A model generated the notes under the pieces. The model saw only the letters and a list, made by a program, of their open reading frames with translations. It had not been told where the DNA came from and ran no database searches. Below are positions 35,007 through 50,649 of a DNA stretch of 50,649 bases, piece after piece. Numbering within the stretch: the stretch's first letter is position 1; the number at the start of each line of letters is the position of its first letter. The translations under genes were made by a program, and so were the position numbers. The DNA is from a virus: IMG/VR virus record IMGVR_UViG_3300024520_000005, positions 1-50,649 of that record. One strand, 5' to 3'.

Positions 35007-35035
35007 TTGACATATATCATGTTTGCCGCTATTAT
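35007..35035 (+). promoter_or_regulatory. near-consensus sigma70 promoter (TTGACA-17-TATTAT)
   Basis: TTGACA at 35007-35012, exact 17-nt spacer, TATTAT at 35030-35035. The ATG at 35043 lies at the expected transcription start. Confidence 0.6.
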
Positions 35036-38862: not shown

Positions 38863-38939
38863 TGGTCGAGGCGGCAGGACTCGAACCTGCAACTGCCGCG
38901 CCCCAAACGCGACCTGCTAGCCAATTGCATTACGCCTCG
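38863..38939 (-). tRNA. tRNA-Pro (anticodon UGG), CCA encoded
   Basis: Hand-folded cloverleaf. 7-bp acceptor stem CGAGGCG/CGCCTCG with C1-G72 and A73 (bacterial tRNA-Pro identity). D-loop contains GG. Anticodon loop UU-UGG-GG with G37. T-arm GCAGG-TTCGAGT-CCTGC. Confidence 0.9.
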
Positions 38940-40227: not shown

Positions 40228-40631
40228 AAGGAAGGGCAGGCAAGGAAGGGGTAGGTGTAGAACGTGCATGCCCGTTATACACCAATAGGGCAGGGATGGC
40301 AAGGATTAAGGCAGGGAGCGGAAAGCAAGGTGGGGGTGTGGGGGCATTTTTAGAGGAACCGGTTTATACATACACATAGGCCCCCCAGCGGGGGAGGGCT
40401 ACGGGCATCCCCCCACCCCCTTGATCTCCCTGCTGCCGTTGCCTTTCGTTGCCTGCCTGCTACTCCTGCCGGCTATCAGCGAGCCTGTACGCCACGACAA
40501 GGCATACCATATGTAGCATTCTTGTATATCCAGGTGCGGAGGGTGCGAAGGAAAGTCAATGAATATAGGGTGATTAGGGCTAAGGTCGTATAATGTACGT
40601 TGTGTCTACTCGCAGGAAAGGCCCGTAGACA

Positions 40632-45644: not shown

Positions 45645-46279
45645 CAGCGACAGAAGGCGGTGGTGGGGATAGGCAGATTGTAGCAGCAGGGCCGAAGATA
45701 GCTCGATGCTATTTAATCTGCGACATAGGTACTCAGGAGAATACGTATGCTGGGGACCTGAAGATTGTGCATCAGGTGGTAGTAGGCTGGGAGATCCCTG
45801 CTGAACGCATCACAATCAAGGATAGGGACCTTCCTGTAGCCATCTCTAAGCTCTACACATTGAGCCTGCATGAGAAGGCAAATCTACGCAAGGATCTGGA
45901 CTCTTGGCGGGGCAAGTCGTTTACAGGGGATGAGCTTGGCGGCTTTGATCTCAAGAATGTGCTTGGCGTTCCTTGCCAGCTTCAAGTGGTCCATAGAGAA
46001 GGCGGGAATGGAAAGATGTATGCCAACGTAGCAACGGTGATGGGTGTTCCTGCTGGGCTAGACGTTCCTGCTGCCGAGAATCCTGCACAATACTTCTCAT
46101 TAGAAGAGGGTGGCGACATTCCTGAGAACATTCCGCAATGGATAGTGGATAAGATTCACGAAAGCCATGAATGGAAAGACAGGCAGGCAGGGGATGCAGC
46201 TAGGGATGCCGAAGCTGGCGTAGTATTCCCTGATGAGGAGCCGCCTACTGTTGGCGCGAATGATGATCTGCCGTTTTAG
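45635..46279 (+). CDS. single-stranded DNA-binding protein, DUF669 type
   Basis: LSLHEKANLRKDLDSWRGKSFT block recalled from DUF669 proteins. Acidic C-terminal tail ending in DDLPF like the SSB interaction tails. Confidence 0.6.
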   Translation: MPLTATEGGGGDRQIVAAGPKIARCYLICDIGTQENTYAGDLKIVHQVVVGWEIPAERITIKDRDLPVAISKLYTLSLHEKANLRKDLDSWRGKSFTGDELGGFDLKNVLGVPCQLQVVHREGGNGKMYANVATVMGVPAGLDVPAAENPAQYFSLEEGGDIPENIPQWIVDKIHESHEWKDRQAGDAARDAEAGVVFPDEEPPTVGANDDLPF

Positions 46280-46285
46280 GGAGGA

Positions 46286-47083
46286 ATGATGAAGATACCT
46301 GTACCAACTAAGATTAAGCGGCATCAGCAGGAAGGGGGGCATTGGTATAGTCCTACAGGGGAGCTTGTTACGCAAGTTCCCTCCGCCGATGGGAAGAAGC
46401 TGGTCACTACCACCCTCCGTCAAGCTCGCAAGCTGGGGCTGTTCCCGTCTGTCACTACCATCCTGAAAAGCATATCAAGCTACGGGCTAGTGAATTGGCA
46501 GATAGAGAACGGGATCAAGACAGCTTACATGAATCCACCAATGAAGGATGAAACGGAGGACAACTGGCTAGATAGGATCATCGAAGAAAGCCGTGAGATT
46601 ACGCGCCACGCAGCAGAACGGGGGACGGAGATTCACGCGGCTATCGAGAAGTATCTTGAAAGCGGCAAGCTGCCTAAGGATGATGTGCTTAAAGCATCTT
46701 GTCAGGGTGTGAAGGGGCTGCTTGATGGCTCTAAGTATGAAGTAGAAACACCATTCTGCTCCAAGCGGCTAGGCTGGGCTGGAAGGGCTGACATCACGAC
46801 AGAACATAGCGTCATTGATATCAAGACTGTCGAGATGAATAAGAAAAGCTATAGCTGGCCCTACTTCAAGCATGGGCTACAGCTTGCCGCGTATGCTATG
46901 GGGCTGAACATGCACAGCGCAAGGCTCATTAACATCTATGTGTGCAGGCTCAGTGGCACCTGCAAGGCGATAGAATGGGGAATAGATACCAGATATGCCC
47001 CTGAGGAGCTTAAGCGCGCCTACGGGCATCTGTACGAGGCTTGGGTGATTGAGAAGCGGTTTGATCCTAGAAAGGAAAGCTAA
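46286..47083 (+). CDS. PD-(D/E)XK (RecB/Cas4-like) nuclease
   Basis: GTEIH, GRADI...VIDIKT (D...D-x-K) and QLAAY (QxxxY). The start may be the second ATG at 46289. Confidence 0.6.
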   Translation: MMKIPVPTKIKRHQQEGGHWYSPTGELVTQVPSADGKKLVTTTLRQARKLGLFPSVTTILKSISSYGLVNWQIENGIKTAYMNPPMKDETEDNWLDRIIEESREITRHAAERGTEIHAAIEKYLESGKLPKDDVLKASCQGVKGLLDGSKYEVETPFCSKRLGWAGRADITTEHSVIDIKTVEMNKKSYSWPYFKHGLQLAAYAMGLNMHSARLINIYVCRLSGTCKAIEWGIDTRYAPEELKRAYGHLYEAWVIEKRFDPRKES

Positions 47084-47084
47084 C

Positions 47085-47603
47085 ATGAGCAAGGAAATCA
47101 CGCGGGACATGCTGAAGGATGGGATGAGGGTGAGGTGCAAGATTCTCGGGGAGCAGATAGATGATGCACAGATTGAGATAACGCCTGCGGGCAGCATCTA
47201 TATATGCCAAAATCAGTGTGACGGCTTTGAAAGCGGGAGTGATATGCATGGATATCATTACGCATGGCTTGCCGCACGTGCGGGCGAGATTCTTAAATAT
47301 GGGATGAAGAGAGAGGACATCACTGACCTCCGTATAGTCGGGCTTGAAGCCGCCCCCAAGAAGCCGCGCCCATACATCACGTCAATGCGTACAGACTATG
47401 ACGAGAAGGGGAAGGCTCGCTATACAACCTACACCTACAATGATGGCGTGGAGATGTGTAACGAAAGAATACGTGAAAGCGTTACGTCTGAGGCCGAATC
47501 CCCTGCAGATTACGCCGAAGGCATAGCCAAGCTGCGGCGGGAAGCTAACAGGCGGGCAGGGATACTTAGACGCTGGGAGCGGAAGTTCGGGGAGGGGTCA
47601 TGA
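47085..47603 (+). CDS. hypothetical protein (172 aa)
   Basis: Internal ATG after GAAAGGAAAG. Confidence 0.6.
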   Translation: MSKEITRDMLKDGMRVRCKILGEQIDDAQIEITPAGSIYICQNQCDGFESGSDMHGYHYAWLAARAGEILKYGMKREDITDLRIVGLEAAPKKPRPYITSMRTDYDEKGKARYTTYTYNDGVEMCNERIRESVTSEAESPADYAEGIAKLRREANRRAGILRRWERKFGEGS

Positions 47604-48169
47604 ACATTCTGGTTGCCTGCGAGTTCAGCGGGATTGTGCGGGATGCCTTCTGCAAGCTGGGCCATGACGCATGGAGCTGCGATCTACTTGAGTCAGAGCG
47701 GGACGGGAATCATATCGTAGGTGATGTCGCTGCTATCATGGAAGCTGGCACATGGGATATGATGATAGCCCATCCTCCCTGTACGCATCTAGCTGTTTCT
47801 GGCGCGAGATGGTTCAAAGATAAGCAGCAGGAGCAGGCTGATGCTATCAAGTTTGTGGAAATGCTGTGGCATTCCGGTATTCCACGCATATGCATAGAGA
47901 ATCCAGTCGGCGTATTACCCAGACTCAGCTCCCTTGGCAAAGCTACGCAATGGATACAACCTTGGCAATTCGGGCATGGCGAGACTAAGAAAACGGGGCT
48001 ATGGCTCAAAGGATTGCCGCTATTGGAGCCTACTAAGATAGCAGAAGGGCGGGAAGGCCGCGTCTGGAAGATGGCACCAGGCCCCGATAGATGGAAGGAG
48101 CGAAGCAGGACATACACAGGGATTGCCGAAGCAATGGCAGATCAATGGGGAAGGGGAATCACATCATGA
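47600..48169 (+). CDS. compact C5-cytosine DNA methyltransferase-like protein (189 aa)
   Basis: ILVACEFSG (motif I-like), HPPC (motif IV) and IENPVG (motif VI). No room for a separate target-recognition domain. Confidence 0.5.
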   Translation: MNILVACEFSGIVRDAFCKLGHDAWSCDLLESERDGNHIVGDVAAIMEAGTWDMMIAHPPCTHLAVSGARWFKDKQQEQADAIKFVEMLWHSGIPRICIENPVGVLPRLSSLGKATQWIQPWQFGHGETKKTGLWLKGLPLLEPTKIAEGREGRVWKMAPGPDRWKERSRTYTGIAEAMADQWGRGITS

Positions 48170-48375
48170 ACCTGGAAGAATTATGGCAGCATCTCAGGCA
48201 GCTATACCCCCGAATCCGCAGCGAGGAAGTCAAGCTGTCTAAGCGGGAGCTGGAGGGGATTGTAGACTTCGCCTATGCCGTGGCCCAGAAGACAGGCTAT
48301 GTGGAAGGCTACAGGGAAGGCGGGGACATGGCTATAGGGAAGATTAAGCAGGTGTTCGGGAAGGGGGAGGGATGA
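48166..48375 (+). CDS. hypothetical protein (69 aa)
   Basis: ATGA overlap. Confidence 0.55.
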   Translation: MNLEELWQHLRQLYPRIRSEEVKLSKRELEGIVDFAYAVAQKTGYVEGYREGGDMAIGKIKQVFGKGEG

Positions 48376-48509
48376 AGGGGATTGTGCTGACGATGGTAGC
48401 TAACCTGATCCTGTGTGCGGTCCATGTCCACTTTGGGTCATATAGCTGGGCCGTATTCAGTGGCGGGATTAGCCTATTCGCAATGATGGTGATTGCTAAG
48501 GAGATATAG
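48372..48509 (+). CDS. small membrane protein (45 aa)
   Basis: ATGA overlap, two hydrophobic segments. Confidence 0.4.
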   Translation: MKGIVLTMVANLILCAVHVHFGSYSWAVFSGGISLFAMMVIAKEI

Positions 48510-48511
48510 TT

Positions 48512-48901
48512 ATGACAGAAGCATACATAGAGAACGCCGCGATCATGCTGATTGAATGGCAGGGGGATGGAGCTGCTAAGGTGAGGACGTTCAGGAGCAG
48601 GGAGGAGCTGCTGAAGGGGGTGGGAGCGAGCGAGGAAGGCGTGGATGACAACCATGCCTGTGAAACCTGCGAGCATGAAGATGTGCGTGGCGGCGAGGAA
48701 CCATGCCATAGCTGTGAGCCAGATTTTGGCGTGGACAACTGGGAAGCTAAGGTAGTGGAGCCAGAGGACTATGCCTGCACAACCTGCGAGCATGAAGCTG
48801 TATGCGCTCGCCAGAAGCCGCACGTTACCTGTAGGCCACGTGATGGCGTGGGCGGCTGGGAAGCAAAAGAAAAGCTGAAAGAAATAGTTGACAGCGATTA
48901 G
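48512..48901 (+). CDS. protein with duplicated CxxCEHE...C..C...WEAK zinc module (129 aa)
   Basis: AAGGAG SD. Internal 117-nt (39-codon) tandem duplication with units starting at 48656 and 48773. Confidence 0.6.
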   Translation: MTEAYIENAAIMLIEWQGDGAAKVRTFRSREELLKGVGASEEGVDDNHACETCEHEDVRGGEEPCHSCEPDFGVDNWEAKVVEPEDYACTTCEHEAVCARQKPHVTCRPRDGVGGWEAKEKLKEIVDSD

Positions 48902-48917
48902 GCAGGGGTGGTAAGGT
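48888..48917 (+). promoter_or_regulatory. sigma70 promoter with extended -10 (TTGACA-18-TGgTAAGGT)
   Basis: TTGACA at 48888-48893, TG at 48909-48910, TAAGGT at 48912-48917. Confidence 0.45.
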
Positions 48918-48923
48918 AGGAAC

Positions 48924-49040
48924 ACTGATGAGACATAACACAATATCTATTAAATCAAAACTAACTAGCCCCAGAACGATTCTGCCTTCGGGTAGCGTGT
49001 GTCTCATCAGGCCGCGCGGGATCGTCGAGGGGCTTTTTTC
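48924..49040 (+). ncRNA. candidate ~117-nt structured RNA or transcription attenuator
   Basis: Perfect 11-bp long-range stem (48925-48935 / 49000-49010). C(UUCG)G hairpin at 48982-48995. Crossing helix 48968-48980 / 49021-49033 followed by TTTTTTCTTT. No credible ORF. Confidence 0.4.
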
Positions 49041-49187
49041 TTTATGTGGCAGGAACTGCATCACGGGACGGTTCTCGGAACGCTGTGTGCAGCAGAGGTC
49101 TTGGAGTGGACGCGTGTTGCACCGTACACTCCCTGCCTGCCACTATTTTTCCAGTGGAAGGGCTGGGGAAGGTCAGGAGTGTGTGTT

Positions 49188-49595
49188 ATGAGTGAATGGA
49201 GCGAGAAGTATAAAGACCCAAGATGGAAACAGAAGCGATCAGAGATTATCAAGAGAGACAATAGCCGTTGCTGTATTTGTATGGCTGAAGATAGTCATTT
49301 AGAGGTGCATCATGACTACTACACCCCCTCTGCTGATGGTCCGTGGGATTATCCAGACACATCCCTCACCACCCTCTGCCCTGCATGTCATAAGGTTATG
49401 ACTGCGACAACGAGAGCTGTTAAAGCCGCCCTTTTTATCTTCGTCAATAAGCGGCAATGGTACGACTTCATTGTTAGCGATAGCGCAGAGGACACTATGT
49501 ATCTTGTGAGGTCGATAATGGAAGCGTTAAGTCGAGCAAGAGACGGCAGCAGGGCGTCACTGAAGCTATGGGGTAACGAAGGGGGTGCAGAATGA
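49188..49595 (+). CDS. HNH-motif protein (135 aa)
   Basis: AGGAG SD at the internal ATG. CCIC...HLEVHHDYY...LCPACH. Confidence 0.55.
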   Translation: MSEWSEKYKDPRWKQKRSEIIKRDNSRCCICMAEDSHLEVHHDYYTPSADGPWDYPDTSLTTLCPACHKVMTATTRAVKAALFIFVNKRQWYDFIVSDSAEDTMYLVRSIMEALSRARDGSRASLKLWGNEGGAE

Positions 49596-50476
49596 ATCGC
49601 GCCCCAGCTTTCCAATTCTATCCAGATAAGGCAATCGCAGGCACACGGCACCTCAGCCCCGAAGCATTCAAGGCGTACTGGAGTATGCTATGGTGGATGT
49701 GGCTACACAGCCCCACATACTGCTCCATAAACGACACGGATTCGGGGTGGAAAATAGCCACCGGAATCAATGATCAAGATACCCTAGATTCAGTCAGAGC
49801 AGAGATCATGTCAGATGATATGCCAATGCTCAAGAAGCGACGACAGAAACTGTATTCAAATGGGTTAGAAAAGGAGATAGAAAAGATACAGACGAGGAGG
49901 GCTAATTCGTCGAAAGGAGGACGTACCACATCAAAGCGTAATAAAGACAAGGTGTTTAGAGCCAAGTCCACTACTAAGTCCACTACTAAGTCCACCAAGG
50001 ATTCACTAGGCGTTCACTGCGTAGTAAAACAGCACCCTCCTACTCCTACTCCTTCTCCTACTATACCACAACTACTAGACACCCCTCTTTTTGTGAAGGC
50101 TTGGGCTGAGTGGCAAGCTCATCGCAGGCAGATCAAAAAGGGTCTTACTGAGCTTCAGGCGCAGAAACAAATCAATCAATTCGCTGACTGGGGTGTTAAG
50201 CGTTCTGTCGCCGCGATTAACCATACGATCAAGAACGGTTGGCAGGGGATATATGAGCCAAAGGGCGATGATGCTCCTAGCCTGTCTGAAGCCCCTTGTG
50301 TGGATGCTCAGTTCCAAGGCTACTTCTCTCCTGATCAGGCTCGATGGCTAACCAATGCCTTCGTTAATATTGATCGCAAGAAGGCGGGTGAGCCAGAGAT
50401 CGCACAAGATCCAGCACATACTGTCACAAAGGCAGAGTATGATGAATTCGTCGCCAACACAGGAGATCACAAATGA
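49592..50476 (+). CDS. DUF1376 (YdaU-like) replication organiser candidate
   Basis: N-terminal FQFYPDKAIAGTRHLSPEAFKAYWSMLWWMW matches the DUF1376 signature. Sits directly upstream of dnaB. Confidence 0.6.
   Translation: MNRAPAFQFYPDKAIAGTRHLSPEAFKAYWSMLWWMWLHSPTYCSINDTDSGWKIATGINDQDTLDSVRAEIMSDDMPMLKKRRQKLYSNGLEKEIEKIQTRRANSSKGGRTTSKRNKDKVFRAKSTTKSTTKSTKDSLGVHCVVKQHPPTPTPSPTIPQLLDTPLFVKAWAEWQAHRRQIKKGLTELQAQKQINQFADWGVKRSVAAINHTIKNGWQGIYEPKGDDAPSLSEAPCVDAQFQGYFSPDQARWLTNAFVNIDRKKAGEPEIAQDPAHTVTKAEYDEFVANTGDHK
49964..49999 (+). repeat. tandem 12-mer AAGTCCACTACT x3 (third copy degenerate) inside the DUF1376 gene linker
   Basis: Read directly (encodes KSTTKSTTKSTK). Followed at 50036-50063 by the CCTACT-type repeat encoding PPTPTPSPT. 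Confidence 0.8.
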
Positions 50477-50649
50477 CCATCAGCCACATACCACCACACT
50501 CAGAAGAAGCAGAGCGGGGGCTACTGGGCGCGATGCTACAGGACTGCAACACTGTCCTCCCTGTCGCTATGGATGCTGGAGTGAATGCGTCTAGCTTCTA
50601 CGTCCCCGCCTTGCAGGTAATCTACAACGCCATCATCGCACTTAACGGC
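50473..50649 (+). CDS. dnaB: DnaB helicase, N-terminal part (continues at position 2 after circular closure)
   Basis: ATGA overlap with the upstream stop, AGGAG SD. MTISHIPPHSEEAERGLLGAML is the DnaB N-terminal signature. Confidence 0.85.
   Translation, partial: MTISHIPPHSEEAERGLLGAMLQDCNTVLPVAMDAGVNASSFYVPALQVIYNAIIALNG
50523..50649. repeat. terminal overlap identical to 1-127
   Basis: See the feature at 1-127. Confidence 0.9.

Follow-up and report, generated by a model that had tools for sequence, protein, structure and literature searches.

The element described here lies close to the 3' end of the window, by which we mean the whole 50,649-nucleotide (nt) stretch of viral DNA that was analysed (IMG/VR record IMGVR_UViG_3300024520_000005). 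Between an upstream open reading frame (ORF), which ends at 48901, and the start of an HNH endonuclease gene at 49188, there is a gap of 286 nt in an arm whose adjacent genes overlap or abut, as an earlier reading of the letters by themselves (hereafter the sequence-only reading) had pointed out. The gap holds a predicted promoter, two long helices that cross each other (P1 and P2, with 5' arms P1a and P2a and 3' arms P1b and P2b), an A-rich linker (L1), an inner hairpin (P3), a U-rich tail and most of an 87-codon leader ORF, and it is followed by the HNH gene, a replication initiator gene (rep) and dnaB (Table 1). The comparisons below support the view that the element is a real structured RNA, made from the + strand close to its promoter and conserved in architecture ahead of the replication module. 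The best reading for the window is a cis-regulatory gate on that module with a terminator-like 3' helix, one of the roles the sequence-only reading had put forward. We interpret it more specifically as a pseudoknotted attenuator and translational gate, coupled to the leader ORF, for the HNH-rep-dnaB operon, with a probability of roughly 0.5.

Table 1. Coordinates of the leader features and of the genes that follow
Feature	Position	Strand	Description
Predicted sigma70-type promoter	48888-48917	+	-35 TTGACA at 48888-48893, 18-nt spacer, TGn extended -10 TAAGGT at 48912-48917
P1 5' arm (P1a)	48925-48937	+	CUGAUGAGACAUA; 13 base pairs with 48998-49010; contains the leader AUG (48928-48930)
Leader ORF, 87 codons	48928-49191	+	AUG in P1a; runs through L1, P2, P3, P1b, U-tract and spacer; TGA overlaps the HNH ATG (ATGA, 49188-49191)
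L1, A-rich linker	48938-48967	+	41% A across the family
P2 5' arm (P2a)	48968-48980	+	GCCCC (48968-48972) and ACGAU (48976-48980)
P3, inner hairpin	48982-48995	+	CUGCC(UUCG)GGUAG
P1 3' arm (P1b)	48998-49010	+	UGUGUCUCAUCAG
P2 3' arm (P2b)	49021-49033	+	AUCGU (49021-49025) and GGGGC (49029-49033)
U-rich tail	49034-49043	+	UUUUUUCUUU (DNA TTTTTTCTTT), directly after P2; terminator-like output
Spacer peculiar to this phage	49044-49187	+	Traversed by the leader ORF; HNH Shine-Dalgarno sequence AGGAG at 49175-49179, close to the spacer's 3' end
HNH endonuclease gene	49188-49595	+	ORF list, gene calls; first gene under the proposed control
Replication initiator gene	49592-50476	+	ORF list, gene calls; second gene under the proposed control
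dnaB	starts 50473, runs over the window end	+	Third gene of the operon

Promoter and crossing helices of the leader

The -35 hexamer of the promoter matches the consensus at all six positions and the -10 hexamer at only three of six, with the upstream TG at 48909-48910 and a spacer of 18 nt. With such a -10, and with ~40 nt enclosed by P2, the site is below the threshold of the consensus promoter and terminator scan, which lists nothing at the element. Transcription is predicted to start at ~48923-48925, on the first bases of P1, and a transcript ending at the U-tract would measure ~117 nt. The extended -10 promoter TTGACA-18-TGgTAAGGT named in the sequence-only reading is present as described and has an equivalent at a fixed distance from P1 in 16 of 26 related loci, where a TTGACA-like -35, a spacer of 16-18 nt and a TAnnnT -10 end 6-12 nt (mode 7) before the helix. 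The site is one of only four in the window of the form TTGACA-N15-19-TANNNT. The other three exact sites are at 35007 (+), 39824 (-) and 41143 (-), and the two on the - strand flank a strand-switch region at ~39.8-41.2 kb that holds a G-run/C-run intergenic stretch at 40300-40440.

The 11-base pair (bp) core of P1 joins CTGATGAGACA (48925-48935) to TGTCTCATCAG (49000-49010), in RNA letters CUGAUGAGACA and UGUCUCAUCAG; it begins at the expected transcript start, as had been noticed before, and extends to 13 bp including one G.U pair, with a duplex energy of -18.8 kcal/mol. The C(UUCG)G tetraloop hairpin (P3) inside this helix and the second helix, whose 3' arm abuts the U-tract, are likewise found where the sequence-only reading had placed them. 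P2 resembles an intrinsic terminator in its GC-rich stem (65% GC in the arms, with a GCCCC/GGGGC base) and in the U-tract that directly follows. The short loop of 3-8 nt expected of such a terminator is not found, P2 enclosing ~40 nt made up of P3 and P1b, and a terminator scan of 46000-50649 detected nothing. P1 and P2 cross (i<k<j<l) without sharing nucleotides, and this crossing pair has the top score on either strand of the entire 50.6-kb window, 53 compared with 45-46 for the next best. A second crossing-helix candidate at 40329-40435 was rejected, its fold not being significant (z = -0.18). The crossing of the two helices is borne out, with compensatory changes for both in relatives. The sequence-only reading had left a choice between a pseudoknot and mutually exclusive terminator and antiterminator folds. 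The pseudoknot is favored by the separation of the P1 and P2 3' arms, which is only 0-3 nt in 15 of 26 loci, and a pair of folds competing for the same bases agrees less well with helices that share no nucleotides. The geometry thus appears to fit a coaxially stacked pseudoknot better than a classical terminator/antiterminator switch.

The covariance-model search that had been proposed matched no family at the element. Rfam 15 at the gathering threshold, run over the whole window with families including CopA, the ctRNAs, C4, the hammerhead and riboswitches, returned only a tRNA-Pro (anticodon TGG, 38863-38939, - strand), which is the sole Rfam or ARAGORN match in the genome. A search of region 48700-49300 at E<=10 gave only a chance 6A match upstream (48841-48884), and a search of 20 related loci at E<=1 gave nothing at the element. 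A tRNA-like or tmRNA identity was rejected because ARAGORN finds only the tRNA-Pro elsewhere in the window. The sequence CUGAUGAG resembles a hammerhead core, but no hammerhead model scored. We regard the element as a candidate for a new Rfam entry, an uncatalogued RNA family that may be a variant of plasmid-type leader-peptide control.

The same layout in distant relatives

Approximately 110 loci encoding relatives of the N-terminal domain of the initiator were fetched. To judge from these, the same architecture precedes the initiator-gene relatives in about 20-25 distantly related lineages of metagenomic phages, whose helix sequences are unrelated. From 5' to 3' the elements are promoter, P1 5' arm, L1, P2 5' arm, P3, P1 3' arm, P2 3' arm, U-rich tail and start codon, the last lying 10-28 nt after P2 in all 25 relatives. 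P1 measures 7-19 bp and P2 8-17 bp across the family, and P2 has a median GC fraction of ~0.73 and a median duplex energy of -22 kcal/mol. The inner hairpin between P2a and P1b is also present in relatives, with one compensatory pair in alignment A6. Strong crossing helices whose ends lie 8-32 nt before the start codon occur in 28 of 85 distinct upstream regions, compared with 1 of 85 dinucleotide shuffles and 2 of 73 coding controls. When 96 whole loci (650 kb) were scanned on both strands, 15 of the 42 strong matches fell in the 0.44% of the sequence that immediately precedes the initiator gene. Even under a nested-only model, the folds of ten relatives have z values of -2.4 to -6.3.

Across the distant lineages MAFFT brings only the -35 hexamer into register, which makes such an alignment unusable for pair counting. 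Pairs in P1, P2 and P3 were instead counted on four structure-blind MAFFT alignments of close pairs or trios. These alignments contain 11 two-sided compensatory changes (3+5+2+1), ~10 one-sided G.U changes and a single mismatched cell; 98.7-100% of the cells pair, compared with 30-50% when the partners are slid by 1-3 columns. A lack of compensatory covariation in relatives had been named in the sequence-only reading as grounds for abandoning the element, and the covariation is present. Between L050 and L052, the nine leader substitutions comprise six in three compensatory pairs, one G.U change and two in loops. From the alignments only, RNAalifold recovered P1 and P3 on A5 and P2 and P3 on A4.

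The fold is strand-specific because of its G.U pairs, and the + strand folds better than its complement in 17 of 22 independent lineages, with 2 ties, which favors an RNA read in the same direction as the replication genes and speaks against an antisense element or one acting as DNA. An antisense RNA of the plasmid kind was also looked for: no consistent - strand promoter or terminator was found across the lineages, and none in the window, by consensus scans that a weak promoter could escape, and the - strand folds worse. In L022, L043, L058 and L071 a promoter-like GTGCCA-18-TAGAAT (TAAAAT in L058) lies on the - strand ~140-150 nt downstream of P1a. It coincides with the initiator-gene codons for the conserved residues A-F-Q-F-Y-P-D, has no counterpart in the window and is probably a by-product of conserved coding sequence. 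The A-rich L1 was considered as the tail of a - strand terminator and rejected on inspection, the pattern being inconsistent across lineages.

A U-tract (at least five T in eight) directly follows P2 in 14 of the 22 independent lineages, the window included, and is absent in 8; the T fraction is 0.51 in the tail compared with 0.21 within the element. The 3' part of L1 pairs with the tail or the ribosome-binding site (RBS) in ~10-12 of the 22 lineages, extending P2 over the downstream Shine-Dalgarno sequence or start region with free energies down to -19 kcal/mol. This pairing beats nearly all cross-lineage controls (Wilcoxon p = 0.03) and is also seen in the minimum free energy (MFE) structures of relatives. 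The lineages that have it are mostly without a U-tract, and 11 of 12 carry a leader ORF. An inverse relation between U-tract and leader ORF was considered, and the counts are too low to support one.

The leader ORF and the proposed gate

The leader ORF was called by gene callers as an 87-amino acid protein. It has no homologue among 5.8 billion proteins, and its codon-usage score is -0.15 per codon, compared with mostly positive scores for the neighboring genes. Corresponding ORFs in relatives are 33-40 codons long and stand in the same frame relation, with unrelated peptides. The coupled frame, which ends on the start codon of the next gene, stays open over 100 nt or more in 18 of 23 loci, compared with 3 of 23 for the other non-gene frame, and an ATG is positioned inside P1a or at most 20 nt after it (P1a/L1) in about 14-16 of 21 independent lineages. 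In the close pairs, nucleotide changes track base pairing and not amino-acid conservation. Because frame and stop position are kept while the peptides are unrelated, what is conserved would be the act of translation rather than a protein. The sequence-only reading had counted a conserved small ORF against a regulatory RNA. Such an ORF is found, and its frame and stop are conserved, yet with its unconserved peptide it is better seen as a part of the device than as an alternative to it, and its annotation as an orphan 87-amino acid protein is probably wrong. At most a few nt separate the AUG from the predicted transcript start in the window, L034 and L090, and the promoter-derived leaders of these three would be nearly leaderless.

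The 144-nt spacer that separates the U-rich tail from the HNH gene is free of stop codons in all three + frames, where ~6-7 would be expected. It shows no BLAST similarity to any fetched locus, and the HNH-bearing relatives L005-L008 are without it. The ideas that it repeats the element or forms another structured RNA were rejected (fold z = -0.84, no similarity anywhere), and a longer HNH protein starting at 49044 was ruled out because the sequence is homologous to the L005 HNH gene only from the ATG at 49188 onward. The segment CAUAACACA (48934-48942), which covers leader codons 3-5 and reaches back into the end of P1a, is complementary without a mismatch to UGUGUUAUG (49182-49190), where the HNH start codon lies. 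This 9-bp Watson-Crick match between L1 and the HNH start has p ~0.006 by shuffling and is present in the MFE structure of the whole gap (z = -0.91).

In the gate that we propose, transcription would start at ~48924 and the first 13 nt, P1a with the leader AUG, would pair with P1b inside the large loop of P2. The segment with the leader start has two complementary partners, P1b and the HNH start region. A ribosome that engages the emerging leader ahead of the synthesis of P1b, ~70 nt further on, would travel behind RNA polymerase and block both P1 and P2, and with the ribosome following, transcription would pass the U-tract. The translating ribosome would also unmask the HNH start from leader codons 3-5, terminate at the ATGA and re-initiate, feeding the ATGA-coupled HNH-rep-dnaB chain. 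When no ribosome loads, P1 would close the leader start site, P2 would form and transcription would stop at ~49040 to leave an RNA of ~117 nt, and any full-length RNA would be translationally silent. The net effect would be low, translation-dependent and roughly one-shot expression of the replication genes from each transcript.

Several observations weigh against this gate. Every functional step in it is inferred from sequence. The helices of the distant lineages were found by a complementarity search within each sequence, a procedure that only the shuffle, position, strand and close-pair controls keep from being circular. BLAST of the window element against all fetched loci gave no match and its own helices are without direct covariation, so that its membership in the family would rest on architecture and position and not on sequence homology. 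The distance from P2 to the HNH start is 154 nt, compared with the 10-28 nt seen elsewhere. P2 of the window is weak (-14.3 kcal/mol) and interrupted and, in enclosing ~40 nt, is not a canonical terminator. The in silico fold that the sequence-only reading had called for was run with a nested-only model and gave z = -1.84 for the element, which is modest on its own; under such a model P1 and P2 may either coexist as a pseudoknot or exclude each other. Approximately 5-7 lineages (L019, L020/22, L023, L083 and L085) keep P1 and P2 without a leader ORF, and the fold must therefore also have a ribosome-independent role, which could be termination, protection of the 5' end (P1 being at the first transcribed bases) or protein binding. 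In L020 (356-361), one of the lineages without a leader ORF, the P1 5' arm holds AUGUAG, a start codon followed by a stop.

Among known systems, the closest in function appear to be the leader-peptide control of plasmid initiator genes (R1 tap-repA, IncI1 repY-repZ and IncB repB-repA) and the pyrBI-like terminator within an ORF, with the phage leader a member of neither. Leader-peptide coupling controls plasmid initiator genes, and in IncI1 (ColIb-P9 repY-repZ) and IncB (pMU720 repB-repA) plasmids the leader ORF stop overlaps the initiator start and a long-range pseudoknot in the leader contributes to the regulation (PMC8053102). The phage leader is like these in its target, a replication initiator gene, in a short leader ORF that stops on the downstream start codon (in the window and in ~14-16 of 21 lineages) and in a long-range interaction of the leader RNA. 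In the plasmids, however, the pseudoknot consists of a few bp between a hairpin loop and a site by the RBS and activates translation, and the regulator is an antisense RNA. The phage leader has no such short activator pseudoknot but two long helices of 7-19 bp that cross, with contiguous 3' arms ending 10-28 nt before the start codon; it also has no consistent antisense promoter, carries a U-tract in two thirds of the lineages and shows no sequence or Rfam similarity. In IncFII R1 tap-repA, with its CopA antisense RNA, and in IncI2 repR-repA the initiator is translated only by coupling to an overlapping leader peptide ORF (PMC8053102). The overlap and, in the gate proposed, the coupled translation are shared with R1, whereas no antisense RNA gene is evident in the phage leader and the pairing of its 5' end into a loop as a pseudoknot is absent from R1. 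Intrinsic terminators are suppressed by ribosomes that trail RNA polymerase closely, and the one of pyrBI is embedded in the 135-bp leader ORF of that operon (PMC4824070). P2b and the U-tract of the window (49021-49043) are likewise embedded in the leader ORF, ~115 nt downstream of its AUG. The differences are that the phage helix encloses ~40 nt and is crossed by P1, that 8 of 22 lineages are without a U-tract and that no nucleotide-sensing pause sites are known in it. Long-distance pairing in MS2 limits translation of the maturation protein to nascent RNA (PMC4615214). As in the 5' untranslated region of the maturation gene of MS2 and Levivirus, a 5' segment of the phage leader would pair at a distance and occlude a start site, leaving a short kinetic window for ribosome loading and giving low, transcription-linked expression. 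MS2 has an RNA genome with a cloverleaf and with neither leader ORF nor terminator, and the analogy is one of logic only.

Other explanations of the element were weighed on the same evidence. The sequence-only reading had also allowed a stand-alone phage small RNA (sRNA), that is a ~117-nt transcript from promoter to U-tract that has its 5' end in the pseudoknot and acts in trans, with read-through incidental. A promoter, a GC-rich helix and a U6 are all present, the compact fold with a paired 5' end would be stable, the U-tract recurs in 14 of 22 lineages, and a terminated leader can double as an sRNA, which makes the idea compatible with attenuation. As the sole function it is unlikely, being disfavored above all by the fixed spacing of 10-28 nt to the downstream start codon, always in sense orientation, and by the 8 lineages without a U-tract, in which pairing between the tail and L1 covers the RBS of the next gene. 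The leader ORF frame is moreover conserved through the element, and no candidate target or Rfam family was identified. Pseudoknots in the mRNAs of T4 gene 32 and of ribosomal proteins are recognized by proteins that repress through them, and the leader could be an operator of this kind, through which the initiator, or some other protein of phage or host, would repress the operon at the level of translation or transcription. Across lineages the fold persists as its sequence changes, also in those without a leader ORF, and the coaxial P1 and P2 (15 of 26 loci) together with the A-rich linker suggest a defined three-dimensional shape. No conserved nucleotides able to form a binding site were found across the lineages, however, and the conserved spacing is already accounted for by the leader ORF and the RBS pairing; we rate an operator as a little less probable than the sRNA.

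We give very little credence to the 87-amino acid ORF being an ordinary functional small protein gene with incidental helices. The gene callers report it, AAGGTAGGA 7 nt upstream could act as a Shine-Dalgarno sequence on read-through transcripts, and the ATGA overlap with the next gene fits the style of the arm, but the missing homologues, the negative codon-usage score, the unrelated peptides or absent ORFs in relatives and the close-pair substitutions that preserve base pairing instead of amino acids all point the other way. A processive antitermination RNA, through which the nascent leader would modify its own RNA polymerase to read through downstream terminators, is in our judgment just as improbable. 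Like lambda nut and HK022 put, with which the sequence-only reading had compared it, the element would be a promoter-proximal, cis-acting RNA in a phage early transcript, conserved more in structure than in sequence. The comparison is not borne out in the details: no match to the boxA sequence CGCTCTTTA within two mismatches was found on the + strand of 48918-49043, boxB-like sequence is likewise lacking, no Rfam model matched, and the layout is one of crossing helices with a terminator-like tail of their own and a leader ORF instead of two adjacent stem-loops. No terminators that would need suppression were detected in 46000-50649, nor any sign of a modified polymerase, and the leader ORF and the fixed start-codon spacing would be left unexplained. 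Least credible of all is an element acting as DNA, with the interleaved inverted repeats serving as an origin, a single-strand initiation site or protein-binding sites. It adjoins replication genes, and inverted repeats are common at origins; against this stand the strand-specific G.U pairs (+ strand better in 17 of 22 lineages), the conservation of complementarity and not of sequence, and the promoter immediately upstream and start codon immediately downstream. The iteron-like repeats at 49964-49995 inside the initiator gene are also a better origin candidate.

If the leader acts as the attenuator and translational gate that we prefer, it would be a compact control element that combines leader-peptide coupling, a terminator inside the leader ORF and the occlusion of a start site by fold-back pairing, devices described apart from one another in plasmids, biosynthetic operons and RNA phages. 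To our knowledge, how the level and timing of replication initiators are controlled in tailed phages beyond the lambda, T4 and T7 models is largely unknown. It is possible, if rather doubtful, that the leader represents a new class of phage cis-regulatory RNA whose 5' end pairs into an apical loop and whose short ORF reads through to license the replication module (nuclease, initiator and helicase) only on transcripts that capture a ribosome while nascent. Such licensing would tie phage DNA replication to the translational capacity of the host, and the terminated, pseudoknotted RNA of ~117 nt might be a stable by-product with a function of its own. The promoter and leader could also serve to mark the start of replication modules in uncultured phage genomes.

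Genes of the operon and the surrounding genome

The junctions between leader ORF, HNH gene, initiator gene and dnaB are all ATGA overlaps. In the window and in its nearest relatives (L005, 366-833) the HNH gene fits precisely into the junction of leader ORF and initiator gene, joined to each by an ATGA overlap, and the HNH cores of the window and L005 are 42% identical; in the other lineages the initiator gene comes directly after the leader with no HNH gene between. A normally mobile HNH gene thus seems to have been absorbed into the translationally coupled chain without breaking it. Of the HNH, DUF1376 and dnaB genes that had been named downstream of the element, the first and last stand. 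The DUF1376 label was not recovered: the initiator protein of the window has no Pfam match at E<=1, and only 4 of 10 relatives of the initiator match that family, weakly; PHROGs labels the product of 49592-50476 as a replication-initiation O-like or primosomal protein.

Searches of phage GenBank records, E. coli genomes and IMG/VR gave no close DNA relative of the window, and Logan yielded only identical copies of its sequence. The nearest homologue of the initiator is 41% identical. Relatives of the initiator among 185,579 species genomes (L118-L120) were confined to metagenome-assembled genomes of Acidobacteriota (Bryobacterales, Terracidiphilus) and Gemmatimonadaceae, at 24-30% identity, and provide no clue to the phage host. 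The two ends of the window, 2-130 and 50523-50649, encode the same DnaB N-terminal residues (LGAMLQDCNTV...ALNG), which indicates a complete circular or circularly permuted phage genome with an assembly overlap of ~127 nt; dnaB accordingly continues at the window start across the overlap of the ends. Within the initiator gene there are two tandem repeats, a 12-mer AAGTCCACTACT present 2.7 times at 49964-49995, which encodes a KSTTKSTTKST stretch, and the 6-mer CTCCTA present 4.3 times at 50037-50062. These iteron-like repeats could be the site of an origin within the initiator gene, comparable to lambda, where the origin lies within the O gene.

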